A stretch of 58,493 nt of DNA from an uncultured Lentisphaeraceae bacterium (GCA_964390795.1 CAYMLQ010000003.1:1-58493); one strand, 5' to 3'. Shown: positions 8,971 to 52,198, numbered from the stretch's first letter. The notes: a model not told the origin generated them from the letters alone. Translations and numbers: made by a program.

Positions 8971-10713
8971 CTATTCTGCCGCACGATCCGCTGGCGCTGC
9001 GTGCCACACCGGTATCAGCAATACCCGTGCCTCGGTTTCACTTCCGGAACCGGCCAACCCCCACAGCACGCTCCAACGGTGCTGTTCGTCATCTCCCATT
9101 CCACGACGGAACCAGGAAGCCAGTAGCGGAATCCGCCAGTACGTGAAATCCGACCGCTTGTCGCCCACATGTCTCAACAGTCCGCACAACGTTCCATAAT
9201 AGTGCCTGTCAGGATTAGACTCGGCACGCAGAAGCAACCCGTCTGCGATCGTCATTCCAAAAAACTGACTTCCGCCGTCAACATCGAGCAGATGCCCGCC
9301 ACCTAGCTCAAGGCCGCTCGAATGTCCCTCAAAGGATGGGAAACGAATCGGCCACGGCAAATCCGAAAACCTGGAAGCGCACCAGGAGGGACGCTCGGCA
9401 TCCACTTGGCTCGCAACCCCAAGCGCTGCGCTCGCCTCACAGCTCGCCGCTCGACCCACGGCGGAGCCAGCCCATACGACCGCCACCAGACGGCTATTCT
9501 GCTGGACACACCACGGCGTATCGCCGTAGCCAGCTTTCAGGCGTTTCCTAACCTGCCGGCAAAAAGAACGAGCCATGTCGGGACGCTCCCAATAGCTCAG
9601 CCAAACGGTTTCTGATACCCCAATCCCGTCCTTGAGCAAATAGACCCGATCCCCCATCCACCCTTTCAGAAAACCGAACTCGCTGGCCAGAGCCATCGTG
9701 TCGCCACCCAACCATAAAGCCGTTCCAAGGGCTCCCAAGCTATTCGTCGAAACACCTGACGTCGCATAACAGAAAAGGCGACTGTCAGGCTCGATCACAG
9801 CGGGCTTGAACGAGCGCATATAGCGCCGCTCAGGATAGAGGATTTCAGCCGTCGTGCGCGGCAGGCGCCGGCGGTAGATGTCGTCGATCGCCTGCCAGCC
9901 AGCCTCGCGCCGGATGCGGTTCACAAACACCCCGCCGTCCAGATACGGCCGCAGCAGCGTACCGCTCAAAAAGGGCGGGCAATCCCCCATCTCCTCCGTC
10001 ATCTGGCCCGACAAATCGACAGCAGCCATGACCCGCACCGCCAGATTGCCCAACGGCGTTGCCGTGTTGACCGGAACCTCGGCAAATACACTGTCAAGGC
10101 CCACCAAGACGGCCGTTCCCTCGATAACGGAGGTCAGCGCCAGACTGCGGTCAAAACTGGAAAGTGACTCGGTGGTCAAGCGCTCCAAGCCAAATTGGCT
10201 GTCGTCCACCGCATGGCAGAACTCGTGCACGTACACGAAACGCTCCATGCCTGGGAGCGCAGCACTGTTGGTGCCCCCCCCACCACTGCCCTCAACATAC
10301 GCGACGCGCTTTTTCTCAGGATCATAGTAAGCGGCGATCTGCTCGCTCATAACCTTCAAATAGACGGATTTCAGATCGCCGTCAGGCTTCAGGATGCGAA
10401 ACTGCCTCAGCAGCGCCTCCGTTTCGGACAGAAAAACGCGGTTTTCCTCTTTATCCAGCTCGCATGTGAGCGTCTTCTGCAGCTGTTCGGACGTCTCGCG
10501 CTCAATAACCACTGCCTGTTTCAGCGGCAGGCCGCGCAGCTGTTCTGCCAAAGCCTGGTCGCGCTGGCACTGTACGTGCCGGTCAGCGCTGCGCGCGACC
10601 GGAATCGAACTGCAGCCGGACAACCCAACCGCTACCCCGGCACCCCCAAAGAAAACGCCTAAAAGACGCGCCATCACTCCGCAACGCATACGACCGCAAA
10701 AACTAATTTTCAT
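8971..10713 (-). CDS. Putative lipoprotein with a zinc-metallopeptidase (HEXXH) domain and an aromatic-rich C-terminal region
   Basis: Lipobox-like LSGC after a hydrophobic stretch, HEFCH followed by VIEGTA (gluzincin-like third ligand), and AYYDP. The ATG at 10713 has an AGGAAG RBS; 10752 is an alternative start. Confidence 0.65.
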   Translation of the reverse strand: MKISFCGRMRCGVMARLLGVFFGGAGVAVGLSGCSSIPVARSADRHVQCQRDQALAEQLRGLPLKQAVVIERETSEQLQKTLTCELDKEENRVFLSETEALLRQFRILKPDGDLKSVYLKVMSEQIAAYYDPEKKRVAYVEGSGGGGTNSAALPGMERFVYVHEFCHAVDDSQFGLERLTTESLSSFDRSLALTSVIEGTAVLVGLDSVFAEVPVNTATPLGNLAVRVMAAVDLSGQMTEEMGDCPPFLSGTLLRPYLDGGVFVNRIRREAGWQAIDDIYRRRLPRTTAEILYPERRYMRSFKPAVIEPDSRLFCYATSGVSTNSLGALGTALWLGGDTMALASEFGFLKGWMGDRVYLLKDGIGVSETVWLSYWERPDMARSFCRQVRKRLKAGYGDTPWCVQQNSRLVAVVWAGSAVGRAASCEASAALGVASQVDAERPSWCASRFSDLPWPIRFPSFEGHSSGLELGGGHLLDVDGGSQFFGMTIADGLLLRAESNPDRHYYGTLCGLLRHVGDKRSDFTYWRIPLLASWFRRGMGDDEQHRWSVLWGLAGSGSETEARVLLIPVWHAAPADRAAE

Positions 10714-10794
10714 TATACGCACTTCCTGCTTGTAACTTGTTCGGGAAATCATAAGAATTTAGCCAATAAACAGCAATGATAATCGTTTCTCATT

Positions 10795-11376
10795 ATGAAA
10801 CACGTGATGCCAGATGAAGCGACAAGCGATGCGGACTTGCTGCATGCCTTTTCAAAAGGCGATGCGGCCGCGCTGGACATGTTGGTGGGACGGTATAGGG
10901 TAGCGCTCTTTTCTTGGTTCGTGGGCATGACCGGTAACCGAGCGGACGCCGAAGACCTCTTTCAGGATCTTTGGTTCCGGGTGATCAGGCATGCTGACCG
11001 TTTCAACGATGTGTCTTTTAAGGCTTGGCTGTGGAAGATCGCTCGAAACCTCATCATCGATTTCCGGCGTAAAAAGAAACCCGATATCAGTTTGGATGCG
11101 GTCGAGAGCGAAGATGACCAGCCCCTGCTAGACCAACTGCGCGCTTCCGACAAAGGTCCTGCCGAACGGGTGGAGCGAGAAGACTTGGCAAAGCGCGTGT
11201 TGCGCGCCGTGGCCACGCTTCCCGAGGTGCAGCGTGATGTGTTTCTGATGCGTGTGCAAGGGGATCTGTCTTTTGGCGAGATCGCCTTGACGCTGAAGAT
11301 TCCCTTAAACACGGCTTTGGGGCGCATGCACGACGCGATGACAAAACTGAAGAGAATGCTTTCCGAGGAGATCTAA
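10795..11376 (+). CDS. ECF (sigma-70 group 4) RNA polymerase sigma factor
   Basis: Region 2 DAEDLFQDLW and SFKAWLWKIARNLIIDFRR; region 4 LPEVQRDVFLMR...LSFGEIALTLKIPLNT. Confidence 0.92.
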   Translation: MKHVMPDEATSDADLLHAFSKGDAAALDMLVGRYRVALFSWFVGMTGNRADAEDLFQDLWFRVIRHADRFNDVSFKAWLWKIARNLIIDFRRKKKPDISLDAVESEDDQPLLDQLRASDKGPAERVEREDLAKRVLRAVATLPEVQRDVFLMRVQGDLSFGEIALTLKIPLNTALGRMHDAMTKLKRMLSEEI

Positions 11377-24889: not shown

Positions 24890-24967
24890 GGGAAAAGATA
24901 AAGGTGAAAGATGAGGGGTGCCTTGCCCATAATCGACCACCCTAATCTTTCACCCTAATCTCTCCCG
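24890..24967. repeat. Imperfect inverted repeat made of ~12-bp units
   Basis: Core GGTGAAAGAT (24903-24912) pairs with ATCTTTCACC (24945-24954), and the flanking units extend the pairing. Confidence 0.65.
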
Positions 24968-25172: not shown

Positions 25173-25202
25173 ACGGGCGAGTGACAGCAGTCACTCGCCC
25201 GT
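25173..25202 (-). terminator. Hairpin, likely terminator of the giant gene
   Basis: Perfect 13-bp stem ACGGGCGAGTGAC / GTCACTCGCCCGT with a 4-nt loop, 28 bp after the stop codon. The U-tract is weak. Confidence 0.65.
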
Positions 25203-25230: not shown

Positions 25231-28200
25231 CTACCTCAGACGGATCAGCGTGCCGTTCACGTAGATAAGCTTCACCGCTCCATTGACGTAGGACACATGC
25301 CAATGTGTGCTTGGCAGATTGTGGGTACTGAACGTGCCACTGATTGATCCGGTATAGGTCATAATGGTGTAGACCTTACGTGTGTCCAACTGCTCCAGGT
25401 TAGCGATCTGCAAGCTCAGCCCGCTCATGTTGAGGTTACCCTGAACCGCCAGACGATCACTGCTGCCGTTCGCACCCAAATCAACCAGCAGGGTGCCATT
25501 GGCGGTCGTTGAAGCGGCGACCGTCAGCGTGCCGATGACGTTCGTTCCGCCGGGGGCGATGACATCCGTCACGGCGAGTGTGCCGTTGCTCACTGTTCCC
25601 GAGCCGCTGATCTGCGCCACAGTCTGCGTCGTGCCGCCGAGGTTCAGCGTGGCGTTGGTGTCCACTTCAACCACCGAATTCGAGTCCAGCAGATCGGCTC
25701 GGCCAAGCGCCGACAGCGTCAGGAAGCTGCCGTCACCCGGATCCTGCAAGCGCTGGAAGTACGCCGCATTCCTCGTGTTGCGACCCAAACGGTCGACGCC
25801 GATGCCAGGATAGCTGGTGTTCGGCCCCACGCCGCCGGTGCCTTGGCCCAGACGGACCTCGAGCGCGTGCGGGCCAGGAGACATCGTGACGTTGGCGAGG
25901 ACGTTAGTACTGTGCACACCGTCGTTAATAATCGTCACACCGTCGATCTTCACCAGTCCGGAGTCGTCGAAGGCCTTGTTGAAGGTCCAGACCTCATTCG
26001 TGGCGGAGTTGTTCCAGATGTAGCCGGAGTAGATGTAGGTGCTGTTGTCGAGCCAGATGCCGCCCGAAGCCGCATTGCTGGCGAAGCTCAGGTAGGCGTT
26101 TGTGACAGACAACTTCACCTGCGACATGGGGTTGGGCGATGTCAGATCGAAGTTGGAGAGAGCGCTCCGACCCTCGTACAGGCCTGCACGTTGTGAACGC
26201 GAGACGGGCGCCAGAGTCAGCGTGCCTTCAGACACAACGAGCGGTTGCGCGGTCTCTTGCGCGGCCGACAGCGTGGCCGAGTCAGGCCCGATCTTGTTCA
26301 GCGATGCGTTGAACGTGCCGTTCGAAACGGAGCCGGAGAGAACCGTAACCGAGCCGTTGGTGATCGTGCTGACGAAGCCACCCAAGTCGTAGGTGCCGCC
26401 GTTCACGACCACGGCCGCGTTGGTCGGTATCGCGTTGGGGAGCCCGAGACGGAGCGTGCCGCTGTTGATGAGCGTCGTGCCGCCGTAGGTGTTCGTGCCC
26501 GCCAGCGTCAGCGTGCCGGAGCCCAGCTTGGTGAGTCCGCCAACGCTGGTGTTCAGCGCCAGTTGGCAGAACCCGACCGTTGCCGGCGTGGTCGCGCCGC
26601 CGCCGACCAAGGTGGCGACGGGTGCGTCGTACCACTGATAGCCTACGCCAGAGCTGGTGATCGTGATGCCGGTCACCTGGCCCTTGGTCGGGCTGCCGTC
26701 GTCCAAGTCTATGGTTGCGATCGCGGTTGCGCCCAAGCCGCTTCCACCGGTGATCTTGACGGCCGGAGCGCCGATGTAGTTCGTGCCGCCGGTCAACAGC
26801 GGGATGTAGGTCACGCCGTAGCCGGTCGGGGCCAAGAGCGACTGGCCGACCGTGACGGTCGCGTTCGACGAGTCGATCACCGCGCCGCCGGGGTAGACGG
26901 GGGCGGCGGTCAGGCCTTGCATGAACGCGTTCGTACTGCTGCCAGCCAGCAAGGTGCCTCCGTTGAAGCCGAACACCGTCGGAGTGCCGGTCACTTGAGC
27001 ATAGACTTTGTTCGCGCGAATCGTACCGCTGTTCAGGTTGACCGCAGCCAGGTAGCTGCCAGCGCTCCTGGCCATGTTGAGCATACGGCCGTTAGGCGTG
27101 GTGTCCAGCAACGCGCTCGAACCCAGCATGTTGATCACGCCGTGGTTGGCGGCGTTACCCGCGTAAGACAACGTGGTGTCGTTGGCTCCGGGGGGCGCAG
27201 TCACTGAGCCGCCGAACATGTTCAGGATGCTGATGCCGGTGCCCCAGTTGAAGATCAACCACCCGTTGGGGGTCTGAACCTTAACGGTGCCGTTGTACAG
27301 GTCGAAGACGCCGTTGCCGCCGCCGCCGCCGCCCAATCCCAGTTGGCCGGTGGTGAGGCTGCCATTGTTCATGCGGTAGTAGCCGTAACCGCCGCCCCCG
27401 TTGCCCAAGTTCAGCACTTCGGTGCTGCCAATCGTGGGGCCAACGGCAAGGATGCCGTTCTTCTGGATGAAAGCCCCGGAAGAGCCGTTGACATTGCCAA
27501 GCAACAGTTTGCCAAACGTCGCGTTGGTCGAGAGCGTCGCGACGCTGCGGTCACCGCTTGCCGAGGCGACAGTCACGACGTGCGTGGTGTTCGTGCCAAT
27601 GGTCGTTACACCGTCAATGATGAGTGACGTGTTCGTCGATCCGCCGCTCACCGTAATCAGGCCAGGAGCGTTGGTGCTCGATGACGGCAACACCAGCGTG
27701 CCGCCGTTGACGATGAGCGACCCCGTAAAGGTGTTGGTTCCGTTGAGCGTTAGCGTGTTATTGCCTCGCTTCGTCAGGGCGAGCGCCTTGGTCAGGTTAC
27801 CCAGATAGTCCACGTCGGCTGGCGTCGTGTCGATGCTCAGCACGGCTGTGTTGCTCGCGAACGTGCTCGTGTCATGCAGGCTCTTGATCTGATCCGCGTT
27901 CCAGCCCGTCACGCCGTCATCCGAACGGAGCGCCAGCGTCGCGGCGGGGGCGATCGTCACCTTGCCTGCATCGTACCCGGGCAGTGAACCTGGGGCACGG
28001 GCGAAGAGCGTGCCATTGCTGATGATCGTTTGGCCGCTGTAGGTGTTGTTGGTACTCATGAGCCACAGGGTGGACGGCGACGAGCCTGACCTGACCAGCG
28101 TGCCCGGTCCGGAAATGTCGCCGTTGATCGTCCAACTGACGTTGGCAGATCCGTTGTTGAGGTAGGACTTGCCGTTTAGGACCACCGGGCCGGCCCAGAT

Positions 28201-31200
28201 GTTCTGGTTTGTGGCGGGGACAGTTCCTGACCCTGTGAAGAGCGAGTTCTCGTTAAGCACAAGTGTCCACAAAGGCATGGAGCCAACAAAGTTCCAGAGG
28301 TCGAACGTGCCGCCGCTGTTGACCGTGTTCGTGTTGGCGGACGTTCCGTTGATCGTGGCTGCACTCTCGAAGCGCAACCGGCCCTGGTTGATCGCGATGT
28401 GACCCGCTCCCGGGTTTAGGAGCGTCGTGCCTCTAAGCGCGATCTCGTTCACATTGGTCTTCGAGAGTGTGTAGCCGTTCAGGTCAAGTGTCGGCGAACC
28501 GGTGAGCAAGTCCCAGCGCTGGTTTCCGCCAAAGGTCGTGTGGCCGGCAAGGGAAATCCGGCTCATCGCGCTGACCTGCGTCGTGGTCGAAACGTTGACG
28601 ATCGCACCCGCACCATCGTAACCGGCACCGCTGACGATAAAGAGCCGGGTGCTCAAATTTAACTGGTCCATCGCACGTGTGCCTCCGACGTCGGGCGTAC
28701 ACCCCAGATTGAGCGTGGCGCCCTCGGCGATGATAACACTTTCCGTTGAATTACCGAACGCGTTGTTCTGGTTAGGACGAACCATGCCCGCATTGATGTA
28801 GGTCGGCCCCGTGTAGGTGTTGGCACCAAGCAAGTGGAGCTGGTTCGTTCCGCTCTTGGCGAGCGAACCCGCACCGCCGATCACGTTGCTGAGGCGCTGC
28901 GCGAACGGGCCTCCAAACTCGAGCGTTCCCGCGTTGATCGTCACCGCGCCGGAGAAGGTGTTCGAACCGGCGAGCACGGCCGTGCCAGAACCGTATTTGC
29001 TGACCGTGGACGCAGTCGTGTTATTGGCGACGGCGGCATTGACGGTCAGCACCGCACCCGCATTGTTGTTCTCAAGTTTCAGGTTCCCGCCAGGGTTGAG
29101 CGGCGCGACATACCCGTTGCCCGGGTTTGCTCCAAGCGTCATCGACCCTTGGCCGGCGGCGATTGTCAGCGCGGACGCCAGCAGCGTCTTGTTGGTCGTG
29201 TAGCTGACCGTGTCGATGGTTGCAGCAACCGGCTGGCTTTGCTGCACCATGAAGATCCGGTTGGTCCAGATGCCTTCAAGGGTGATCGGGCCGGAGTCAC
29301 CGGGTTCGGTGATCTGGGCGAACGCGTTGGCGTTGTCGGGCACGACCGAGTTAGGAACGTTACCGCGGGCGGCCAGGTTGGTCACGACGTCGCTGCCCGA
29401 CGCCCCGAACGCGTAGACGCCCAGGGTACTGCTGTAGGCTGCGAGGTTTGTTCCGTTAACCGTTGCCCAGGCGCCGATGGGGCCGTTCGCCTGAGCCGTG
29501 ATGTAGATGCGGTTCTGGTCAGACTGTCCGAGTCCCGTACCCGTGAAGTCGAGCGTCGCGCCCGACGCGTAGGCGAGCGAGGCAATGGTCACGACCGAGG
29601 TCTGTCCGCCGTCGGCCAGCGAGGTGGCGAACGTGTTTGTCGAAGCCGTCACGGAGAGCGCGCCCATGCGCTCGCTGTAGTCTGCCGCGCCGCCCTCGTG
29701 AGCAAAGCGCAGTGTGCCGCCGGACAGCGTGATGCCGGTTAGGTCGCGCAGACGATCCGTCGCGTTGGTCAACTCGCTGTTACGAAGCTCCAAGACCGCG
29801 TTGCCTGAGAGCGTGAGGGCACTTGTTCCGGCAAGCGCTCCATTCGCTCCGGCCAAGACGAGGCTACCGCCGCTGATCGTTGTTGCGCCGCCAAAGGTAT
29901 TTGAACCGTACAGCGTCCACGTGCTGGCGTTGGCCTTGGTCAGCGAGAGCGTGTTCAGTCCGTTGCTGATCGGCCCCGTGACGACGTTACCCAAGCTAAG
30001 ACCGTCCAGCCAGAGGGTTTTTGCGGCCGACGACCTCAAGATAGCCGCAGTGCCGACTCGAATCGTAGCATTATTGGTTGGAACAAGGATCACGCTGCCG
30101 GCACTACCCGAACTGAGATTGATCGAAGGTATGTTCAGGGCCGGGACGCCATTCACAACGTTGGTAGCGGCCGACACGTTGATCGTGACGGAGCCCAAAT
30201 CGAAGTCACCGAGCGAATGGCTTACGGCATCCTCGCTGCCGCCATTGCCAAGCACGACGGTTGCGACGCTCAAGCTGTTCATGAGCACATAGTTCGTGAA
30301 CGCGTTGACGCCGTTGTGATCGAGGTACAGCGTTGCCACCGTGCCAGGGATGGTGATCGTACCTGTGCCCAGCGCATTCGGGTGCGTGGCAACCAAGGCC
30401 CCGCCGTTGAGCGTGGTGCCGCCAGAGTAAGTGTTGGCGTTTGAGAGCTTCCAGATTCCGGCGCCAGACTTCGCGACGGTGATCGCGTTCCCGTAGGGCG
30501 TGTTACCGATGACGCCCGAGAACTCACCTATACCGCTGGTCGAACCTTGGAACGTCAGCGACTTCGCCCCGATTCCTGAATGCATCAGGCCACCGGTCAA
30601 CGCGAGGAGGTTTGTGCCCGAGTGGTCGATGGTGCCGCCGCCCGTGGTGCCGGCCAGGTCGATCACGCGGTCTGAGGTCTCGCCCATTCCCGCGTAGACC
30701 AGCGTGCCGGGGGCTGTCGTGTAGCCGAGCTTGACGGTGCCCTGTGCGGCCGATGTCGGCGCGCCGAGCGGGCTAGCCCCGCCACCAACGCTGCCGAGGG
30801 TCGCGACTCTTAGCGCACCCGCCTTGACCGCAGTCGGGCCGAGGTAGGTGTTGGCTCCGGAGAGCGTCAGCGTGGTGGCACCCACCTTGCTGACCTCATA
30901 CGGGCCGTTCATTTCGCTGATCGGGCCGGAAATTTCGCTGTTTGAGGATTGCGAGCCAAAGAAAGCGTCACCCACGCCCGTGATGGGGCCGCAGAGAGCG
31001 ACGGGGCCAGCCCACAGGCCGGCGTCCAGTCGGAGCTGACCGTAGGACTCGCCGGTATCGCCGCCGTAGAGGTTGAGGGTCGCGTTGCGGGTGACGGAGG
31101 AGTTCGCCCACAGCGTGCCGTTGGTCAGGACATTGACCGTCGCCGCGGCGTTGTCGAGGCCCGTCATTTCGGCTCTGGAGGCTCCGGCAAAGGCGCCGAC

Positions 31201-34200
31201 GCCGATGTTCCACACGCCGACGAAGCCGGAGTAGTTGCCGGTCAGGTAGATACGCGCGCTTCCGGTTCCAAGGGAGACGTTGTTGGTTCCGGCGCCGCTC
31301 AGGCTGTTGTTGAGACCGGTGTAGTTCACGTCGCCGGTGCCGCCTGCGCCGGCATCCAGATTGAGTGTGCCGTTATTGGTGACTCCGCCCGTGCCGAGGC
31401 CGCCCGAGTTGGACACCTGGAGCACGCCGCCGACATTGATGAGGGTACCGCCGCTGTAGGTGTTGGCGTTGGCCAGCCTGAAGTTGGCGGCGCCGGACTT
31501 GACGAGCGCGTTGGTGCCCGCGATGGCGCCGGAGCCGGACAGTGTGTAGGCGAAGGTCGCGTTGTTCGCCGTGACGCCGGCCGGCGTGACGGTGGTAGTC
31601 AGCGTGACCGCATTGTTGAGGCTGACGTAGGTGTCATCAAAGACGACCGGATCGCCGACAGAGCCCGCCGTCTCCTGGTAGTAGGCCGAGGCAGCCGCGC
31701 TGTCCTTCCAAATCAGGTTAGCGCTGTCGTTGATGTTCCACGATCCGTTACCTGCGGCGCCGGTGCCCCACGTAAGGGCAGCAGCCGAGCCCGCGAGGTT
31801 CAGCATCAGCGTGTTCCCGACCCAAGACAGGGTGCTGCCGCTGTAGCCGCCGGCAAGGGTGAGTGCCGGTACGGCCGAAGGAGCGGTGCCGCCCACGGTC
31901 ATCAGCGGATAAGTGCCGTTCGCAACAGTGAGTCCGGTGAGAATGACCCTCACGCCCGGCGTCACGGTGAAGGCCGCATCGCCAGTTACCGCCAAAGGCG
32001 CGGTCGTGGCACTGGGCACCGCCGCGAAAGCGAACTCCAGGTCGGGCGCGCCGCCGCCGCTGAGGCCGGCGCTGGTGGTCAGGCCCGCAACGGCAGCCTG
32101 GGCGTCGGAGCCGGCGTAGCGGACGCCGAAGAGCGCGTTGGTTCCAGTGCCTACCGACTGTACCGTGACGGCGCTGTTGCTGCACGAGGCACCGGTGACG
32201 AGCACAAGGCGTCCGCCGTTCACAACAGTTGCGCCGCTATACGTGTTGGTGCCGGTCAGGGTCAGCGTGCCGGCGCCGCGCTTGGTCAGGCCGCCACTGG
32301 TGTTGGGCACCGTGCTGGCGCTGCCGCTCTGGGTCACTGTGCCGCCGCCGCCCGTGAAGGTGAGCGTGGGGGTGCCCATGTGGTAGTTCGCGCCCGGGCT
32401 GGTCAGCGTAACGCCCGTCAGGTTGCCGTTGCTGTCGATCGTGGCGACGGCGCTGGCGCCGTTGCCAAAACCGGCGATGTCGACGATCGGCGGCGCGATG
32501 AAGCCGGTGCCGCTGAAGGTCATGCCGGCGAGGCTGACGCCGTTGCCCCACGGGCTGTGCAGAGACTGTCCGATGGTGAGGGCGTACCCGCCGTCATCGA
32601 TGGTGGCACCGCCGGCGTAGATACGCGCGGCCGTCAAGCCGCTGATAAAGGCGGCGTTGTTCTTGTTGGCCTTCAGCGTGCCGCCGTTGAAGTTCAGGTA
32701 GCCAAAGGCTCCGGAATACTGGGTGACAGCTGGAACGGTGACGGTGCCGCCGTTTAGGTTGGCAATGCCGACGACGCCCGCCCCATTGCCGAAGCGGAGC
32801 GACATGCCTAGGTTCAGGACGTTCAACGCCGCGCTGCCGGAGACGTTCAGGATGCCGCTGGCGCTGTTGCCCACCCGGACATCACCGGCTCCGGCGGCCA
32901 TGGTCACGGTGCCGCCTGTCAAGGTGGCCACACACGTGTTCGCCACGGCATTCTGGTAGGAGCCGATTTCCAGAGTGTTCAAGTTCACGGTGACCGTGCC
33001 GCCGCTGACGAGCAACTCGCCGCGGTTATTTCCGGTAGCGCCCGACGCGCGGCCTATTGCTAAGTAACTGGCGGAGGTGACGCTGCCGCCGGTGACGTTC
33101 AGCGCACCGAAGCCGTTCTGGCCGTTGCCACCTGCACCGAGCCAGATGTCAGAGCCCGCATTCAGTACGCCAGCACTCAAGTTGATGACGCCGATGGCGC
33201 CACTTGTCGTGCCGACCTGCAAGGCGGGCTGCGAGTTCTTGGTCGCGTTCACCGTGCCGCCGGTGATGTTGACAACCGCTTTGCTGGACAAGGTGCCGAC
33301 GTTGAGCAGTCCCGCGTTGGCGGTGTTGCCCACGTTGAGTCCGGCGCCTGCGGGGATATCCACGATGCCGGAGGCGAACGTCGTCGCGCCGGTATAGGTG
33401 TTGGCGGTTGCGAGCGTCAGCCGGTTCGTGCCGAGCTTGCTGAACGTGCCTGCACCCGCAATGACGCCGCTACCTGCGAACGTGTAGGCATACAGGTTAT
33501 TGGTCATCACGACGCTCGATGGGCTGGGCGCACCAGACAACGTCACCGTTGAAGGCCCGGTGAGCGTTGAGTCGTCGAAGAGCACATTGTCGCCTGCTGC
33601 GCCCGAGCCGAAGGGTTCCTGATAGTAGGCGTAGGCCATCGCGGCACTGTTCGTCCACACCAGGTTGGCGCTGTTGTTGATGTCCCACGTGCCGCTGCTG
33701 GTCACGCCGGGGGTCCACTTCAGCGGAACGCCGGAAGCGAAGAGCCGCAGCATGAGGGTGTTGCCGTTCCAATACAAGAAACTGTTGGTGTAGCCGCCGA
33801 CCATGTTCAACGTCGGGACGACGGTAGGTGCCGAAACACCGACGACCATCAGCGGATAGGCGTTTGTCGGGACGGTCAGGTTACCCATGTAGACGTTGAC
33901 TACGGGGTTCGTGGCGAACGTGACCGTGTCGCGGACTCTGAGCGGTGCCACGGTGGTGCTGGGAAGTGCCGCAAAGGAGAAGTCCAGAGCCGGGCGGCTC
34001 GCCGCCGGCGCGAGGGAAACGGCGGTGACCAGATTCGAGCAGGTCCACTGCGTGTTCGCTGCAGAGTATAGGATATTCAAGGAGGCGGCGGCATCGGCGA
34101 CGTCGCTCGCCTGGACAGTCACGGTGCTGTTGCTGCAGGAGCCGCCAGTGACAGCCAGTATCCGGCCGTTATTGCTCGTAAGCGGGCCGCCCAGCAGGCT

Positions 34201-37200
34201 CACGCTGGCCAGCCTGAGCACGCCATTACCCTTCTTGGTCAGGGCGAAGTTGCCACCCACGGCTCCCAGCGTCAAGGTGCCTGCGGCGCTGCCGTTGTTG
34301 GCGACGTTGAAGACAGCCGGATCGGCGGTCAGGGTCGTCGCGCCATACGTGAGGCCGTAAGGCGTGTTGACGAGCGTGTTCGTGCCGGGCGCCATGCTAA
34401 GTGTGCTGGCGTTGATGCTCAGGGTGCCCAGGGTGTGCGTCACGCCGGGGCCGGGGGTCAGGCGTCCGGACTTGACCGTCATCGACGCCGAAACCGTAGC
34501 TGCGTTGTTGAACGTCAGCGCAGTGTCATTGCCGTAGTCGAGCGTGGTGCCCGCAGTGTTGAGGGTGATGGCACCCGTGCCGAGCACATTTGTTTTCGCT
34601 TGGGCAACCAGCGTGCCGCCGCTGAGTGTCGTAGTGCCGCCATAGGCGTTCGCGCCCGAGAGCACCAGCGTGCCGTTGCCGGCTTTGGTCAAGCCGTAAG
34701 TTTGACCCGATGTCTGGGTGATGATTCCGCCGATCGTGAACGTGTTCGCCCGGACGGTGAGGGTTCGGCTGGCAGGGAGGTTGACCGCGCCGGTGCCGAA
34801 GTTCAGGCTGTTCGCGCTGCCGGCATAGATAAAGTCGCCGTTCCAGTCTTGAGGGTTAGCGGTCAAGAGCGTGATATCCGAGCCACTGAGGTTGTCGAAG
34901 ATCGCGCCGCTGCCGATGTAGATACGGCCGATACCGATGGAGGACGCGGTGTTGTCTATGCCGCCGTTGTTGATGTTCATCTGGCCGGCGCCGTGGGTCG
35001 TGCCGCCTCGGTAGGTGTTCGCCGCGTTCAGGGTAATCGTGCCCGTGCCGTATTTCGAGAGCGAGCCGCCGCCGGTGATGAGGCTGTTCAAGGTCAGGGA
35101 AGCGCCGCTCTCAAACTGGAATCTGCCGCCGTTCACGAAGATGGGGTTGTTGTACGTGCCGTTGTTCAGCTGGGCATTGCCTGCTGTGCCGATGTACAGC
35201 GTACCGACCGGGTTGACAGTGATCGAAGCCGGGTTGTAGTTCAGCGCATTGTTGAGGTACGCCGACGTCCAGCCGGATTTGACGAGGGGCGCAGTACCCG
35301 AGATCGCAGCATTGATCGTGTAGTTGTTCGTATTGATATTGATATAGATGGCCGAGGGTGAGACACCTGCGCCGACGCTGGTGACGGTAGCGTTGGCGAG
35401 CAGCGAGTCGTCGAACGTGACGATGCTGCCTTCCGTGTAGCTTGCCGCTCCGCTGTTGTTCTTCCAGTTCAGGAATCCGCCGTCCCAGACCGACGACAGG
35501 TTGCCATTCCACGTCAGGCCGAAGCCGGTGGCGCTGGAGATGTGCAGGATCAGGCTGGTCGCCGTGAGTTCCAAAGTGGCGTTCGGCGTGCTGTTGAGCA
35601 CGACGAATGTGCCTGCGCCTGACCGGGAGGCGAAGTTCATCAGCGTGTAGTCGCCTGCGGGAGCGACGCCGCCGGGGAAAGAGAGCGCGATGGTGTTCAC
35701 GCCGTTCACCGTCAGAACGCCGGCGACGTCGATGGCATCAGAGGCGGACAACGTGGCGGGGATGTCGTAGTACAGCGTGGCGCCGTTCAGGGTCAGCGAG
35801 CTGCCGAGCGTGAGCGTGCCGATGCCGCCGGCGTCGGCCGGCAACAGGCAGCCGCCAGCGAGGACGGTGACGGGGCTCATGACGGCGCCGTTGCCGCCCA
35901 GCGTGGTACCGCTGCTGACGGTGACGGCGACCGTCCCCTTCAGCGAGCCCGGGCTGTTGACGAGCAGGATTCCGCTCCTCTCGTTCAAGAGCGTGGGCCC
36001 CGTGTAGGTGTTGGTGCCCGTGAGGATCTGCGTGCTGTTGCCGCTCTTGCTCAGGCTCAGAACACCCCGGCCGTTTTCGATGACGCCGGAGAAGGTCGCG
36101 ACCTTGGAACTTTCGTTACCGATCGTAAGCGTGGGAGAGACGCCCGTGCCGACGGTCACCCGGCCGCCGCCGACCAGCATGCCCATGGTGTCGGTACCCC
36201 TGATATCAAAGGTTCCGTTGTTTGTAATGCTCATGCTGTCGTGCAGACAGTTGGCCAAGACATTGATGAGCGTGGCGCCCGGCGCGATGGAGATGGGGAC
36301 GTCAGTGGTTCCAGAGTGGTTGAGCTCCATCGTTCCGGCATTGATGACGTACAAGCCGGTACCGGTCAAATTGGGGTCACCGTTGATCCGCAGCGTGCCT
36401 GCGCCTGTCTTGGTGAGGATGCCGGATCCAGCAGTGCTGCCGTTGGCACTCAAAATCAATATCGAGGATGGGCCGACGTCGATGACCGGGGAGCCCAGCA
36501 CGGCAGTGACGGCTCCGGCGTAGGTGTTGACGCCCGTCTGGCTGGACAGGGTGCCATACAACGTCAGTGCCTCTGCGGCTGTGGCGATGCTGCCGGCGAC
36601 TTCCAGAACGGCGCCGGTGTTGACCGTGGTGCCGGCCGCCGTTGCTCCGAGCGCGTTAGCGTGCTGCGCGACAAGCGTGCCTTCGTGGATCGTTGTGGCG
36701 CCGGAATAAGTGCTCGAATTCGGCAGGACGACCTTACCTGATCCGAATTTCTTGAGGACGACCACGCCGCCGATATCGGCGATCGGGGAGTTCAGGGTCA
36801 GGATGCCGCTCGTGCCGTCAACGTCGAGCAACAAACCTTCGGTGGCGACCAGCGGCGCAAGGAAACCGTCGCCAAACTTTTCGCCTACAGTCAAAGACCC
36901 CTGGCCGTCAGTGATGAACAGCCCGTGGGTCAGAAGAATCTTGTTGGCTGTTCCGTTAAGGGTTGAGATCACCGCATCGGTGCCCGTATTCTGCCGTATG
37001 CCGAAGATACGGTTGGTCAGGGTACTGTCGAGCGTGATCGGGCCGGCGACGCCGGGGCTGTTGATTCGCGCCACGATATTTGAATCGTTGGGAATGACCG
37101 AGTCAGGCCCGCGTGCCGCGAGGTCGTATGTGCTGGTGGTGGCGCAGACGCCGCGCGTGGTGCTGTAGAAAGCGAAGTTTGTGCCGTTTACCGTAGCCCA

Positions 37201-40200
37201 AGGGCCCAGGTTGCCTTCGGGTTGGCCGGGGATAAAGATAGCGTTGCGGTTGCTGTCGCCGAGTCCTTCGCCGACGAAGTTGATAAGCGAAACGCCGCTT
37301 CGTGCGATGGAGGCCAAGGTGACGACCGACGTGTAACCCACATTCGCCTGAGAGGTCACGAACTGGTTGGTACCACTTGTAATGGAGAGCGCGCCCAACG
37401 TTTCTCCGTAGCCCGTGGCGCCACCCGTGTGGGTGAAGTTGATCGTGCCGCCCGCCAAGGTAAGGGGTACCCCGTTACGCACGCGGTCGGTCCAGTTTGA
37501 TGCCGTGCTGTTGCGCAGCTCGAGCGTGCTGTCTCCTGAAAGCGTGATCGCGCTCGTGTTGCTGATGGAACCATTGGCTCCCGTAATGATGAACCGGCCG
37601 CGGGTGATCGCGGTCACGCCCGTATAGGCGTTGGGGCTCGCGAAAACAAGGGTTCCGTTGCCGGACTTCGTCACGCTGTAGGTGCCGCTTGCCGAACCGA
37701 GCGTCAGCGTGCCGTTGGCGGCTACGTCGAACGCGGGGTTGCCGAGCAGCGTCGTTGTCCCGAAGGTCAGTCCGAAGGGCGTTCCCGCTTTCACATTCGC
37801 GCCCGGAGCCACGCCGAGGTTGCTGGTGATCGCAAGCGGGCCCAAGATGTGCGTGATGCCGTCGCTGTTGGGGGTGGCCTTGTTGGAGAGAATGGTAGCG
37901 GCGCCGCCGACGCGCGTGGGATAGTTGGTGACGGACGTATCTGTCGCCAAGTCCAGTATGCCGCTGTTGAGGGTGAGCGCAAGCGTCGCGCCGCTTGTCC
38001 CCAAGGCGTACGGGTGGCCCAGTTTGAGCGTTCCGGCTGTGACTGTGTTGGTGCCAGCCGTGCGGGCGCTGGACGAGCCGAGGAACAGCGTGCCTGCGCC
38101 CTGCTTGTTGAGGTGGTAGTTGCCGCTGAGGGTGCCGAGGGTCAGGTAGCCGATGCCAATACCGTTGTTCGCGACGTCGAAGGTCGGTGTGTTACCGCTG
38201 ATCGTCGTGTTACCGAACCTCAGTCCGTAAGGCGTGCCGGGGATCACATTCAGGCCGGCCGACGCAGAAAGGGTCACGTTTCCAAGGGTCAACGTGCCCA
38301 GCGCGTTCGTTACGCCGGGGCCGTAGGTCAGGCGGCCTGACTTCACCCCCGTGCTGGCTGTCATCGAGGCGTTGTTTACGAATGTCAGCCCCGCGTCGTG
38401 ATCCAGTTCCATCGTGCCGCCGCTGAGCGTCAGGCCGCCGGTGCCCATCGCAGCCGGGCAGGCCCTGGCGTACAGCGTGCCACCGTTGACCGTCATGGTG
38501 CCGCTGAACGTGTTGGTGTTCGCCAAGGTCAAGGTGCCCGAGCCGGACTTGGTCAGCCCGCCGCTGCCCGAAATGATGCCGGACAGCGTCTGGGGCGGTG
38601 TGCTGCCATAATTGAATCCGCCGGCATTTACGATTAGATTGCCCGAGTAAACGCCGCCGTTGAGTTGGGCGTTTTGATTCAAGTACAACCAGCCGTTTGC
38701 GATCATCACCGAACTGGGGTTGTAGGACGAAATGCCCGTCAGATAGGTCGCGGCAAGGCCGAACTTATTGAGGGGGGCGGTTCCCTTGATGTTCGCGGCC
38801 ACGCTGTAGATGTTGACGGCGTTGTTGAACACCAGCGCGGAAGGGGTCACGTCGCCCAGGCTGGTGACGTTGAACGACGATGCCGCGTCGTTGAAGGCGA
38901 CCGCACTGCCGTCCGTGAACGTGGCGGGGCCGCTGCCCAGCAGCCAGTTGGCGTCGGAACCGTCCCAGGACGCCGACACGTTGCCGTTCCAGGTCAGGGA
39001 GGAGGTTCCGCTGCCGCTGACGCGGAGGAGAAGGTTTGTGTTGCTCAGCACGAGCGCGGCGTTCGGGTAGGCGCCCGCAAGCTGGAACGTGCCGGTGCCC
39101 GCCTTTGAAGCGAAGGTCATCAGCGTATAGTCGCCGGCCGCTGCCGCGCCAGCCGGGAACGAAAGCGAGACGACGTTGCTACCGTTGAGGGTCAGTGCGC
39201 CAGCCACCGTCACGCGGTCATAGTCTTCGGCGGGAGAAGCGGAGATATCGCAGAGCAGGGTGCTCGTCGTCAGCGCCAAGGTGCTGCCTAGCGTGAGGGT
39301 TCCGATGGTGTTAGAAACGCCGGGACTGAGGATGTTGTAGCCCGTCAGCGTGACTCCGCCTTGGATGGAGCCGTTTCCGCCGAGTATCGTTCCCGTATTG
39401 TTGACCGTCACGACGGTATTGCCCAGCGATCCGGGGCTGACGATGTAAAGTGCGCCGCATAATTCTACCGTGGTTGCGCCCGTGTACGTGTTCTTTCCAG
39501 AGAGTATCTGGACACCCGTTTGGGTTTTTTTCAGCGCCAGCGTACCTGCGCCGTTCGTGATCACGCCGGAGAAGGTTTCCGACATGTTGTTGTTGCCGAT
39601 GGTGAGCGTATTAGTGCCCGAGATGTCTCTGGTCACCAAACCCGCGCCTGCGAATCCGCCGATGTTGTTGTCGCCACGGAGCACACACGTGCCGCCCGCA
39701 TCAACCTGAAGTCGGCTGCTGGTGCTGTTGAGCGCGGATCCACAGGCATACAGCCAAGCTCCATTATTAACGACGACATTTGCATCCATCGTGCCGGCGA
39801 CGATATCCGCGATACCCTCGCGAACGGTCATTTGCCCGTTACCATTCGGATCTTTCAGTAATGCCAGACGTCCACCGCCGGTCTTAACAAAGGGACCATT
39901 CGCCTGGATACAACTGCTGCCGCTGTTGGCTAGGACTAGAGTCGATCCTGTTCCCACATCGATCCGGGAACCGGACGTCAGCGTGACCAAGCCATTGAAC
40001 GTGTTGCTGCCTGTCTGGCTGGAAAGCGTGCCGTTGAGAGCCAGCGCTTCGGCCAGTGTGTTGACGCCACCTGCCAGTTCCAGATTGCCGCCGGGGTTGA
40101 CCGTTGTGCCCACAGTGGTCAAGCCAAGACCGTACGCGTGCTGGACCTTCAGGATGCCAGCGTTCACGATGGTGGCACCGCTGTAGAGGTTTGAACCGGC

Positions 40201-43200
40201 GAAAGTGAGCGTGCCGTTTCCGTATTTGGTCAGGGCACCGTAACCCGAGATCATGCCGCTGAAGGTTTGCGCGGCTGAACTGGCGAAGGTGAACGTGCCA
40301 TTATTGAAGATGTCGCCGGCGTAGGCGCCGCTGTTCAACTGGCTTGCGCCACCGAACGTCAGCGTGCCGTTGTTCACGGCAATCAAGGCCGGGTTGTACG
40401 CGGTCATGCCCGAGAGGGTGATGCTGGCGGAGCCTTGCTTGGTCAGCGGGCCGGTTCCTTCAAGCTGGGCAGCGACGGTATAGTTGTTGGTGCTGTTGTT
40501 GAAAAGCAGGGTGGCGGGCGAGACCGCGCCGCTGCTGGAGACAACGGAGTTTGCTGCCGCGGTGTCGTCGAAGATCGTCGCCGCGCCGGCGGGATAGATC
40601 GCCTCAGCTCCCCCTACCAGCCAGTTCAGGTCCGAACCGTCCCAACTGCCCGAATAAGCGCCGTTCCACAGCGCGCCGGCAATGCCGGTGTCAGTGACCT
40701 TCAGTACGATGCTGTTTTCGCCCTGCTCCAGCGTGGCGTTCGGATAGGCGGTCAGTAGCGTGACGGAGGCGCCGGCGTTCGTGGTGATGCCCGCCACGCT
40801 GCTGAGCAGCGTATAGGTGCCTGCGGGAATGCCGTTCGTGGGGAAGTTGAGTGCGATGCGGTTCACGCCGGTCAGTACCACCTTCGAGCCTGCGCCCGTC
40901 AGCGCGATCAGGTCATTGACGCCGACGTCGGCGACGGTCGCGAGGTCGAAGGTCAGCACTGCACCGTTCAGGGTCAGGGCCGTCGCGGAGGCGCTGGCCA
41001 CTGTGAGGGTTCCGACCGCACCGAGTCCTCCGGGTGCCAGCAGGCTGTTCGTGGCTGCCGTTATCACGCCGTTCACCGTGCCGCTGCCGCCGAAGGTCGC
41101 TCCGGTGTTCACCGTGACCGCACTGCCGGACGCCAACGAACCGGGGCTGTTGACGATCAGCGCACCGCCGTTGACCGTGGTCGCGCCGCTGTAGGTGTTC
41201 GCGCCAGACAGGGCCAGCATGCCCGCACCGTTCTTGGTCAAGCTGTAGCCGCCGCTGATCGCGCCGCCCACGGACAGGGTGTTGGTCAGAACCGTGACGG
41301 TGCGATTCGCGTTCATCGAAGCCGCACCGGTTCCCAGATTCAGGCTCTTGCTGCCGATAAAGGTGAAGTCGCCGTTCAATGCCAGCGTGTTGTTCGAAGC
41401 CAAGGTGATGTCGGCGCCGCTGCTGTTATCGATGCTCGCGCTGCCGATGATGAACGTGCCTGTGCCGAGCGCGGAGGCGTTGTTGATGTTGAGTACGCCG
41501 CCGCTGAGGGTGGTGCCGCCGCTGTGGGTGTTGGCGCCCGAGAGCGTCTGTATGCCGGTGCTCGTCTTCGTGAGGGCAACCGTCGCCGCGCCCGCTCCGT
41601 TGCGGATCACGCCGGAGAAGTCGCCCGCCTGGCCGTTATTACCAATGGTCAGCGTGATGGCGCTCGCGCCGCTGTTGGTGACGAGTCCGATGCCGGACAA
41701 GCCGCCGATCGAGCCGTTGGCAGGGAAGTCGAGCGTGCCATTGGCTTGCACGAAGTAGCCGCCGAGGCAGTTCGCGGTAAATTGGCGCAGCGTGGCACCG
41801 GGGCTGATCAGCCACGGAGCATCTGTGCTGCCAGCGTGCTGAAGCTCGACCGTACCTTGGTCCACGACAAAGACAGATTTGTGATTCGGGTCACCAGTGA
41901 ACCTCAAGGTGCCTGCGCCGGTCTTGGTTACCGTGTTCGAGCCAAGGTCAGGCGTGCTCGCGCCCACGAAGAGCGTCGATCCCGCACCCACGTCGAGCAC
42001 CGCATTGTTGTACATGGAGATCACGCCGTTTACCGTGTTGGTCCCAGGGTTGCTACAGGACAGCTTGCCCCTCAACTCGATGGGTTCGGTGGCGTAGACG
42101 ATGCCCGTCGGCATGGCACCCAGCTCGAGGATGCCGCTGGAGGCAACAACCGTCCCCAAGCCTGAGGCTGAGGGGCCGAGCGCGCCGGCGCTGCCGATAC
42201 GCAATGTGCCGTTGGTAACGAGCGTGAGGCCGCTGAAAGTATTGGTGCCCGAAAGCGTGAGCGGCGCGCTGCCGCAAACCGTCAAGTTGCCACTGCCCGT
42301 AATGAGTCCGCTGTTCGTCTGGGCGACGGTGCTCGCATAGACCAGCTCGCCGTTATTGATGATGTTCGTTCCGAAGTTGCCGGCTCCCAGAACGCCCCCT
42401 TCTCCGATTCTCAGCAGGCCGGACGCGATCGTAACGGTGCTAACAAACGTGTTGTTACCCGTCAGGGTGACTTCGCCCGAGCCTAGCTTATAGACCATTC
42501 CCGCGCCGCCGATGGGCGCAGAGACGGTGAAGTTGCTCAGGCTGTTATTGAAGAGGGTCGAACTGGGGGTGACTGTGGCCGAACTGCTGACCGCGAACTG
42601 CGCGGCGGTGTCGTCGAAGGCAACCGGATCGCCGGGCGTGAAGGCGAGCGCCACGCCGTTGGTGCGCCAGTTCTGAGCGCCGTCGTCCCAGCTCGTCGAG
42701 GCATCGCCCTTCCACAGCAGGGATTTCGCGCCGCCGGGCGCGACGTCGAGGCGGACCATCGTTGCGTTGGTGAACAGGGAGACGTTGGGATAAGCGGGCG
42801 AGAGGACGAAGGAGCCCGTGCCGGTGCGGTAAGGGAACGTCATCAGCGTGTAGGAGCCCTCAGGCGCGGAGCCGTTGGGGAAGTTGAGCGAGATCGTGTT
42901 GACGCCGTTCAAGGTCACCGTGCTGGCGACGGTCACTTTGTCCGTCACGGAACTCAAACCGTCTGGCGCAGTGAGGTCGAAGTGAAGCGAGGCGGCCGTC
43001 AGCGACAGCGTGCTGTTCAGGCTCAGCGTGCCGGCCGTGTTGATGTCGCCCGGAGCCAGCGTGCCGCCCGAGGCGACGGTCACTGATCCGTTGAGCATGC
43101 CTGTGCCGCCCAGAACCGCCCCGATGTTGACTGTCGCTGCGCTGCCCGCGCCCAGCAGACCGCCGGGGGCGTTAACCAGCAGCTTGCCGCCGTTGACCGT

Positions 43201-44532: not shown

Positions 44533-44594
44533 AACAACCAACCTCTTACTATTAATAGCCACGACCTGCACGCTTCCCAATTGAAGATGGTGAC

Positions 44595-44780: not shown

Positions 44781-45704
44781 TCAGTGAAACGGGAGTGCGC
44801 CCGTTTTGAGGGGTATAGGGCCGTTCTGACGATGCACCTTTACACCGTAGTAAACAGCCGGGACAGGCAAAACCACGTCCAGGGGCGACTCACGGCTTTC
44901 GGCGATGCGGCGTTCCAGCAGCACACGGTCCGCCGTGTTGAAGGCGAACATGCCGAAGTGGTGCGGGATCAGGCGCGGAATGCCGGCGTCTAAACAGAGC
45001 GTACAGGCCTCATCGAAATCCATATTGCCGGGAACGCCGCGGCTGGCCAGATACGCGCTACGCCCGTTGACCGGCAGCAGCGCCAGTGAGGCGCCCGCCG
45101 CACGCAGCTTTGCCGCCAGCCCCTCATACGCAACCCCGTCGCCGCCGTGATAAACCGTCTGCGCGCCGAACCTGAAAAGATAACCGAGGAAGTGATGCTC
45201 GCCCCGCTCGTTCTGCTTGAACGTCTCGTGCGCGGCGGCCAGCGCTGTGATGCCCGCATCGCCGCCCAAACCCAGCGACTCGCCGGCGTTGAGCAGCGTC
45301 ATCCGCTGTTCGGGCACCCCGGCCTTGAGAGCAGCCTCGCGTTCGGCGCGCGGCACCGCGAACCGGCAGTGCGGGTTGTTCTCAGCCAGCACACCCAGCG
45401 ACCCCGGATCCATGTGGTCGCTGTGGCGGTGCGTGCAGAACACCCAGTCCAGCCCCCGGACCGCTTCTGCCGCAAGCGGCGGCGGCATCAGGCGCTGGTG
45501 CGGAAACTCCTGCCCCGCATACTTCACCGCCAGATAGTCCGAAAGATAAGGATCAACCATGATCCTCAGCTTCTCATAACGCAACAGGAAGCCGGCCTGC
45601 CCCAGCCAGGCCAGGCCCAGCACGCGCGGCGGCAGTTCTGCGGCGAGCAGCGCGGACGCTCCGCCCGCGTGTCGCTCCAACGGCCCGTGTGCGAGTTCAG
45701 TCAT
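44781..45704 (-). CDS. Metallo-beta-lactamase-fold hydrolase (UlaG-like lactonase family)
   Basis: WLGQAGF, VDPYLSD, THRHSDHMD, YHGGD, LLPVNG and IPHHFGMF. The start is 45704 or 45713. Confidence 0.88.
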   Translation of the reverse strand: MTELAHGPLERHAGGASALLAAELPPRVLGLAWLGQAGFLLRYEKLRIMVDPYLSDYLAVKYAGQEFPHQRLMPPPLAAEAVRGLDWVFCTHRHSDHMDPGSLGVLAENNPHCRFAVPRAEREAALKAGVPEQRMTLLNAGESLGLGGDAGITALAAAHETFKQNERGEHHFLGYLFRFGAQTVYHGGDGVAYEGLAAKLRAAGASLALLPVNGRSAYLASRGVPGNMDFDEACTLCLDAGIPRLIPHHFGMFAFNTADRVLLERRIAESRESPLDVVLPVPAVYYGVKVHRQNGPIPLKTGALPFH

Positions 45705-45709
45705 TGCCC

Positions 45710-51786: not shown

Positions 51787-52095
51787 CAAGGCAAGCGCAT
51801 CTTAATTTTCAGGTCTGAGATTACGGGCTGGGGCGGTCACTCCCGAGGCATCCGCGGGCGCCTGCGCGACAGGGTCGGGTGTCAGCGAGTCGGGTACGCC
51901 CCGAGAGAGGCGTCCGGGGCGTGGACAGGCGCAAAGCGGCGGCGGGTGGCGTGCGTCCGTGCCCGGCTAAAACGAGGAGAGCAGCTCGACGAGGAAGCTT
52001 CGTCTGAGCTCGGCGCGCATGCGCTTGCTGCGCAAGCTGCCTTTCGCCTTGCTGGAGCGCAGGATGTTGAGGCAGATCTTGCGCAGCGCGCCGAG
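51787..52095 (-). mobile_element. ISAs1-family insertion sequence remnant (transposase C-terminus and one terminal inverted repeat)
   Basis: 52095-51967 encodes LGALRKICLNILRSSKAKGSLRSKRMRAELRRSFLVELLSSF*, an ISAs1 C-terminal pattern. CAAGGCAAGCGCATC at 51787 resembles ISAs1 ends. Confidence 0.7.
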
Positions 52096-52198
52096 TGACA
52101 GTACACCGTTGCGTCGTTGGGATTATTGTGGTATTACACATGACGGACGAGTTCATCGAGCGAAGGTTCCGTCCTGCCAGCATAAAGGAGAGCCTCAC

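Follow-up and report, generated by a model that had tools for sequence, protein, structure and literature searches.

A giant PATR protein without a barrel

How a giant passenger-like protein that carries no autotransporter barrel might leave the cell, and whether the short strand at its very C-terminus could act as a signal for this, is the question raised by this locus. In the window, by which we mean the whole 58,493-nt stretch of DNA that was analysed, a minus-strand frame at 25231..44580 reads 6449 aa from a TTG and is the sole long frame in this part of it. From the ATG at 44532, the gene (25231..44532, minus strand) encodes 6,433 aa, to which the in-frame TTG at 44580 would add 16. The protein begins MKMNWRR, and its first residues, MKMNWRRFLLVVNTVVFFAACTVHA (44458..44532, minus strand), form a putative Sec-type signal peptide, with a cleavage site judged by eye and similar N-termini in the relatives. 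It ends in ...GAVKLIYVNGTLIRLR, followed by a TAG stop codon read at 25231..25233; the candidate tag, GTLIRLR, occupies 25234..25254 on the same strand, as judged from the codons and from its recurrence in relatives. Reading of the ORF and its codons confirmed what an earlier note on this DNA had described, namely a 6,433-aa passenger-like protein ending in GTLIRLR. Gly, Thr, Ala, Leu, Ser and Asn are abundant in the protein.

PATR was the only Pfam family found in the giant, in 24 stretches when the protein was scanned as four pieces, and TIGR02601 was the only NCBIfam model above cut-off, with partial, sub-threshold matches to models of autotransporter proteins. Barrel-less PATR-rich giant proteins are common in PVC and related phyla. 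The N-terminal 1434 aa matched PATR alone in Pfam, with no TPS domain, and the RTX family was absent from the Pfam matches of the giant. For the last 199 aa, no NCBIfam model matched at E ≤ 1, and the best Pfam model in a search to E ≤ 10 reached an E-value of 0.54, which we do not regard as meaningful.

The absence of a barrel had been set beforehand as a check on the earlier description, and it held: nothing barrel-like was found downstream, and PF03797 is absent from the giant. Between the stop codon and a convergent gene lie 418 nt. Open minus-strand stretches in this gap reach 82 and 50 aa at the longest, which excludes a hidden or frameshifted barrel after the stop. Pfam annotation of 34 window ORFs returned genes for sulfate assimilation, MurG, MurJ, LpxK and other housekeeping functions, and no TpsB, POTRA, ShlB-type, Omp85, HlyD, TolC or secretin protein or component of type I or type II secretion. 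The window has two ABC ATPases, both with importer-type TOBE domains. The statement that no TpsB or type I secretion genes are adjacent was thus borne out among the 34 ORFs scanned.

An autotransporter-like core followed by a hairpin and a tail

The C-terminal end of the giant can be divided into three parts, all on the minus strand. A terminal module core of beta-helix rungs (25330..25632, aa 6301-6401), similar to the C-terminal end of autotransporter passengers, is followed by a conserved two-strand hairpin, NLP..W.V.Y..G.V.L.Y (25255..25326), and then by the tail. In an AlphaFold2 model of the last 200 aa, built on a 45-sequence alignment, the region is predicted to be a beta-helix (mean pLDDT 85.8, pTM 0.81), with the hairpin strands at residues 178-183 and 186-191. 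Residues 192-200, including the tail, were assigned to no strand by DSSP; the last ten residues average a pLDDT of 83, and the tail may therefore pack against the domain. The Gly of the tail is one of two invariant columns in the alignment.

When the model was compared with the PDB by Foldseek, it matched IgA1 protease (E 4.4e-4), Ssp, pertactin, Ag43 and a C-terminal fragment of IcsA with its autochaperone region. Likewise, a profile of the module matched residues 480-590 of the 618-residue Ssp passenger chain (8e7f_A) with an E-value of 3.4e-6, and three true autotransporters among our matches carry the module 145-195 aa before a PF03797 barrel. On the basis of these predicted folds, profile matches and positions, we take the module core to be homologous to the passenger end of type V proteins, with the barrel apparently replaced by the hairpin and the 7-aa tail.

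The giant contains four internal paralogues of its own last ~130 aa, with cores on the minus strand at 42808..43116 (aa 473-575), 40891..41109 (aa 1142-1214, a partial match), 39085..39390 (aa 1715-1816) and 35617..35907 (aa 2876-2972). About 30 residues beyond each internal copy sits an "N-cap" motif, W.G..W..NW, which also opens the mature protein. The first is found at 44401..44445, and the other four, each after an internal module, at 42667-42714, 40621-40668, 38944-38991 and 35464-35511 (minus strand; aa 30, 607, 1289, 1848 and 3008, respectively). Because the internal modules each precede a motif that also opens the mature protein, the giant looks like five passenger units joined head to tail, of which the last alone appears to have kept the hairpin and tail. 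Indeed, the hairpin has no counterpart after the internal copies, and a 32-aa hairpin-plus-tail profile searched against the giant recognised the true C-terminus alone (E 1.6e-15), the next best match being at 0.0014. The internal copies do close with a similar strand (e.g., NATMVRLD vs the terminal NGTLIRLR), without the hairpin and without the Gly, and the tail could therefore derive from an ordinary structural strand. No solved structure matched the 269 aa that precede the module; our impression is that this region may be lectin-like.

The tail is conserved and locked to the C-terminus

With the last 130 aa as query, a word-indexed search of longer proteins retrieved 89 proteins at E ≤ 1e-3, and HMMER run over every cluster representative retrieved 604 at E ≤ 1e-3, 227 of them at E ≤ 1e-10. 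Position statistics were collected from 229 retrieved proteins aligned by BLAST. The end of the module coincides exactly with the C-terminus in 196 of these and lies at most 3 residues from it in 208. Among the remaining 21, 12 have a tail end with Gly at -7, three are classical autotransporters, and the rest have an internal module or look truncated. Counted over the 208, Gly is found at -7 in 200 and Thr at -6 in 155; hydrophobic residues nearly always fill positions -5, -4 and -2, position -3 is variable, and the last residue is most often R (92), followed by L (30), K (20) and M (17). Over 230 matches, the final residue is R in 104, L in 31 and K in 21, and aromatic in 24 (F 14, W 2, Y 8). 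These counts support a conserved tail motif, G-T-h-h-x-h-[R/K/L/M] with h for a hydrophobic residue, that on sequence comparison is locked to the C-terminus. The earlier note had proposed a G-T-hydrophobic-x-hydrophobic-R strand; its conserved C-terminal character stands, whereas the final R is found in only 92 of 208.

Among 53 distinct tail ends, the Gly at -7 is encoded by four different codons, the Thr at -6 by three, and all three stop codons are used. Since both codons and stop codons vary in this way, conservation acts at the protein level and the end is genuine. A leader was recognised by a heuristic in 94 of 122 long tail-bearing matches, and most of the rest are 5'-truncated calls. 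Far from being confined to the giant, the tail is shared by many signal-peptide proteins of Kiritimatiellia-type bacteria. Besides PATR, the passenger domains of tail carriers include Laminin_G_3, DUF642, glucuronyl esterase, F5/8 type C, CBM96 and DUF1349. The nearest Atlas clusters are labelled "hypothetical protein", with no name, and come from Kiritimatiellota and Verrucomicrobiota. Neither the tail nor the hairpin is covered by a model in Pfam or NCBIfam. The giant itself has every part of what we propose as a Kiritimatiellia C-terminal element: the core, the hairpin W.V.Y..G.V.L.Y, G at -7, hydrophobic residues at -5, -4 and -2, and the stop.

Distribution among PVC genomes

A genome scan found 57 loci in 27 assemblies, with up to 11 loci per assembly and a best match that is 72% identical. 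Of these 27, the 23 assemblies that carry a name are all from PVC bacteria, mostly Kiritimatiellia; by title, 13 are Kiritimatiellia or Kiritimatiellae, 4 "Lentisphaeraceae", 1 Lentisphaerae and 5 "Verrucomicrobia bacterium". Similar tails had been mentioned for Kiritimatiellia proteins in the earlier note, and we indeed find them on many exported proteins of Kiritimatiellia type. On one contig, five consecutive genes bear the tail (overlapping loci L007 and L008). The loci and the window together hold 64 module-bearing ORFs, all with real stop codons, and the core lies 29-68 aa from the protein end in 63 of them.

When ORFs of at least 150 aa from the 57 loci and the window were clustered, no recurrent envelope gene was found beside the tail genes, and of the 123 module-less ORFs with a leader, 107 were annotated with Pfam and none matched Omp85, TonB receptors, secretins or another family of the outer membrane. 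The window and the 57 related loci thus yielded no candidate receptor. Many exported enzymes encoded in the same loci are without the tail.

The tail also occurs on proteins without the module

Most tails sit on the module, as in 50 of 58 regular-expression matches. To these must be added a small number of proteins that end in the tail with no module before it. The strict motif GT[LVMIF][ILVMF].[LVIF][RK] ends 4 of 510 module-less ORFs of at least 300 aa, compared with 0.002 expected from the internal frequency of the motif. A 9-position scoring matrix, applied at ≥ 8 bits to 954 module-less ORFs of at least 200 aa, found 6 matches against an expectation of 0.12; windows offset by 1-8 residues gave 0 matches, and none of 500 column-permuted matrices reached 6 (mean 0.24, maximum 5). 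We conclude that the tail recurs beyond chance, because it is found at the exact C-terminus of relatives as well as of unrelated proteins, far above expectation.

The carriers are diverse. In L001 the carrier is a Big_5/Ig_3 protein whose tail follows the final Ig strand; in L032 it is a 451-aa protein without a recognised family, and in L038 a DUF642-like one. Locus L043 holds two, a leader-bearing protein of 126 aa and a metallophosphoesterase, and L016 has a PATR protein that ends in AATVIMLR. Two further proteins counted among the six "module-less" carriers (L049 and L057) show a diverged module by eye and therefore cannot be counted as independent; truly unrelated contexts are few, 4-5 in ~0.8 Mb. 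Profile comparison detected no module in the L001, L032 and L038 proteins or in the phosphoesterase, and in the L032 protein the sole aligned piece is the 9-residue tail. The phosphoesterase is instructive: of 120 homologues listed, 115 stop near residue 320, where the enzyme itself ends, and five have a 55-70-aa extension with LDTR[YFW] repeats and the end [IV]GT..[LF].R. The single source-named homologue among these five is from Kiritimatiellae. A region search with the extension, consisting of linker and tail, returned the query itself alone.

In several module-less carriers, we noticed by eye a W-x-h-x-h ... G-x-h-x-h pattern before the tail, so that the unit that transfers may measure ~25-30 aa instead of 7; the profile of 32 aa did not detect this pattern in the module-less carriers. 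By these comparisons the tail is separable from the module. The proposal that the short tail is a stand-alone signal accordingly survives in part, in that it is separable from the upstream domain, whereas in most proteins it closes a larger conserved element made up of the autotransporter-like core, ~100 aa long, and the two-strand hairpin.

Comparison with known secretion and sorting systems

The closest resemblance is to type Va autotransporters, with which the giant shares PATR repeats, a predicted beta-helix and a module like the ends of Ssp, IgA1 protease, pertactin, Ag43 and IcsA. It differs in having neither the 12-strand PF03797 barrel nor room for one, and ends ~32 aa past the core by way of the hairpin and the 7-aa tail. 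Two-partner secretion (TpsA/TpsB) differs in that the giant has no TPS domain and the 34 window ORFs scanned include no TpsB gene, and type I RTX adhesins in that the giant is without RTX repeats and without an adjacent ABC/HlyD/TolC set.

The core motif of the beta-signal read by Omp85 proteins is G-x-x-h-x-h. The tail minus its last residue has this same form, G-x-x-h-x-h, and, like the beta-signal read by Omp85/BamA, lies at the extreme C-terminus as a short amphipathic strand after a Gly. For outer-membrane proteins, the published C-terminal signature is a Phe or Trp in last position with hydrophobic residues at 3, 5, 7 and 9 (PMC1634882). Set against this published signature, the giant ends in R instead. 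With hydrophobic residues at 2, 4 and 5 from the end, the tail seems one off in its hydrophobic register and would fit 3/5/7/9 only if the last residue is ignored, and its carrier is a soluble passenger rather than a barrel.

With PEP-CTERM/exosortase, LPXTG/sortase and GlyGly-CTERM/rhombosortase, the tail has in common that it is lineage-restricted, has many paralogous carriers per genome, and is placed at the very end of Sec-exported proteins of varied architecture. These sorting signals are tripartite, whereas the tail has 7-9 residues, no transmembrane helix and no basic cluster. The earlier note had held that the protein has no PEP-CTERM or LPXTG-type transmembrane anchor, and indeed the tail is matched by no NCBIfam or Pfam model: the NCBIfam sorting models gave nothing at E ≤ 1-10, and there were 0 PEP-CTERM-like tails in the loci. 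The C-terminal domain (CTD) of type IX substrates is likewise a ~100-aa domain at the extreme C-terminus of many secreted proteins with varied passengers. It differs in that the predicted fold in the giant is a beta-helix and not an Ig-like sandwich, no CTD model was matched, the host is a PVC bacterium and not one of the Bacteroidota, and the tail here is also a unit without the domain. We rate the tail as a candidate C-terminal sorting-type signal, matched by no Pfam or NCBIfam model. A full-text literature search, covering mostly titles and the starts of abstracts, found no description of this tail; giant proteins of Omnitrophota have been reported to bear PATR repeats, and the available part of that report mentions no such tail (bioRxiv 10.64898/2026.06.07.730766, 2026).

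Possible roles of the tail

Our best reading is that the tail is a tag specific to Kiritimatiellia-type PVC bacteria that usually closes a ~130-aa C-terminal element and also stands alone on unrelated exported proteins. That it serves as a modular C-terminal tag read in trans, for export or for retention at the surface, is a proposition to which we give about an even chance; the trans-acting machine that would read it is inferred. In such a scheme, Sec would first carry the protein over the inner membrane. The free C-terminal strand would then dock by beta-strand addition onto a shared envelope partner, which would either export the protein through the outer membrane or retain it on the surface of the cell. 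Where the cargo is a beta-helix protein, its autotransporter-like core might fold first and help to pull or stabilise the long passenger, a role like that of the autochaperone region in type V secretion. The cultured Kiritimatiella glycovorans is reported to have an outer membrane and Sec, Tat and type II systems (PMC5148204), and a type II route with the tail as retention signal is for this reason equally open.

The same report of Sec, Tat and type II systems in K. glycovorans (PMC5148204) would also suit a purely structural tail, one that merely closes the beta-helix end domain, as its last strand or cap, and is kept for folding, with export governed elsewhere, for example by type II. The large share of regular-expression matches that lie on the module, the similar closing strand of the internal copies, the homology of the core to autotransporter passenger ends and the pLDDT of ~83 in the tail region are all consistent with this. 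Against it, DSSP leaves the tail unpaired, the four internal copies do without hairpin and tail, enrichment is seen at the exact C-terminus only, and the module-less contexts are an Ig domain, a DUF642-like domain and a phosphoesterase linker. We consider a purely structural role rather unlikely.

A more specific mechanism, which strikes us as improbable, would be type V-like secretion "in trans", in which the beta-signal-like strand engages a separate barrel of the Omp85 family or another kind, and passengers are threaded C-terminus first and displayed at the surface. One short tag would then stand in for the covalent barrel of autotransporters, for cargo ranging from a 6,433-aa beta-helix to small enzymes.

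We see a smaller chance that the tail is a donor strand for self-association, through which carriers would strand-exchange into fibres or a lattice on the surface. In its favour, the monomer model leaves the terminal strand unpaired, and many paralogues occur per genome, with tandem arrays; the unrelated folds among the carriers, however, share no common acceptor site.

It is very unlikely, in our view, that the tail is meant not for export but for a protein of the periplasm that binds C-termini, for example a PDZ protease or a quality-control factor. Such a reader would explain why the C-terminus must be free and always equally far from the invariant Gly. A variable, often charged last residue like that of the 230 matches (R 104, L 31, K 21) is, however, ill-suited to classical PDZ binding, and the cargo is adhesin-like or carbohydrate-active. 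A precedent is DegS, which is described as another reader of the signature at the C-terminus of outer-membrane proteins (PMC1634882).

Finally, the idea that the giant is a broken or split classical autotransporter, with its barrel lost, frameshifted or next door, could draw on the PATR repeats, the autotransporter-like passenger end and the three matches with the module 145-195 aa before PF03797, and is close to refuted by the 418 nt to the convergent gene with no long open frame, by the recurrence of this end, with all three stop codons in use, in 63 of the 64 module-bearing ORFs, and by the lack of a barrel gene among the window ORFs scanned.

If the tail is indeed a tag read in trans, then a short, position-locked, lineage-specific mark on hundreds of exported adhesin-like or carbohydrate-active proteins would define a candidate substrate set. 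The tag would permit phylogenetic profiling for the missing machine, and a reporter-fusion test is feasible in cultured Kiritimatiellales. Should an outer-membrane barrel prove to read it, type V secretion and beta-signal logic would extend to soluble cargo.

Surroundings of the gene

Rfam and tRNA scans of the window came back empty. A scan for consensus terminators past the stop codon of the giant called nothing, despite a perfect 13-bp inverted repeat with a 4-nt loop (25173..25202, minus strand) that lies 29 nt past the stop and resembles a terminator hairpin without a T-run. The GC content is even between the giant gene and its surroundings.

Tail-bearing genes and proteins in other contexts

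Five large genes bearing the C-terminal tail motif lie consecutively on one contig (overlapping related loci L007 and L008), and all five of their products terminate in GT[LI]MLLK. One gene is truncated at the locus start while the remaining four encode proteins of 2706-2923 aa, and the array looks like the result of a recent tandem expansion. In the representative library we also found a protein, P0091, of exactly 6,433 aa, the same length as the giant protein of the window, with an N-terminus of the same kind and the module at its C-terminus. P0091 is not the giant itself, as the two share 46% identity over the matched stretches and differ by an early indel.

Outside the module family, the tail is connected to a metallophosphoesterase (L043:10919-12097) by a linker in which an LDTR[YFW]-type repeat occurs two or three times, and the same linker makes up the bulk of a 126-aa protein from this locus (L043:9136-9516); the observation also covers proteins P0232-P0236. 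An FGE-sulfatase-like gene comes after each of the two L043 genes. Judged by eye, the first LDTR[YFW]-type repeat is similar to P-[DS]-x-R-W-H, with which the module hairpin begins. Lastly, a GH39-family protein (L006:3478-4875) ends in ...YADGVIRLATDGSAVLLVRF, which from its sequence looks like a variant of the hairpin plus tail with one additional residue and Phe in last position; it was not among the proteins counted with the tail motif.

Surroundings of the giant gene

Upstream of the giant gene, and on the same strand, lies a gene for an HzsA-related protein of 971 aa (window 45710-48625, minus strand), with an HZS_alpha middle domain and a weak cytochrome c match; an MBL-fold gene (window 44781-45713, minus strand) is located between the two. 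Of the 57 related loci, 11 contain HzsA-related homologues, which share the strand of the tail-bearing gene in every case and lie immediately beside it in some (L037, L046, L051). Because the HzsA-related family is spread broadly across Planctomycetota and Verrucomicrobiota, this linkage may only mirror polysaccharide-use clusters. In the 3' direction, the AT-richer gap separating the giant gene from a convergent gene holds an imperfect inverted repeat of 27 nt, 81% complementary (window 24891-24966), which contains recurring GATTAGGGTG-like words.

Other genes in the window

A 1,908-aa protein (window 52019-57745, plus strand) combines Ig domains with 16 DUF5122 beta-propeller stretches. It lacks the tail, its C-terminus reading ...RFYRILITLP, and has no obvious leader at its N-terminus as judged by eye. 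Finally, the genes for an ECF-type sigma factor (window 10795-11376, plus strand) and a leader-bearing protein of 593 aa that belongs to no known family (window 8971-10752, minus strand) are divergent (window 8971-11376), and their products may form a sigma/anti-sigma pair.
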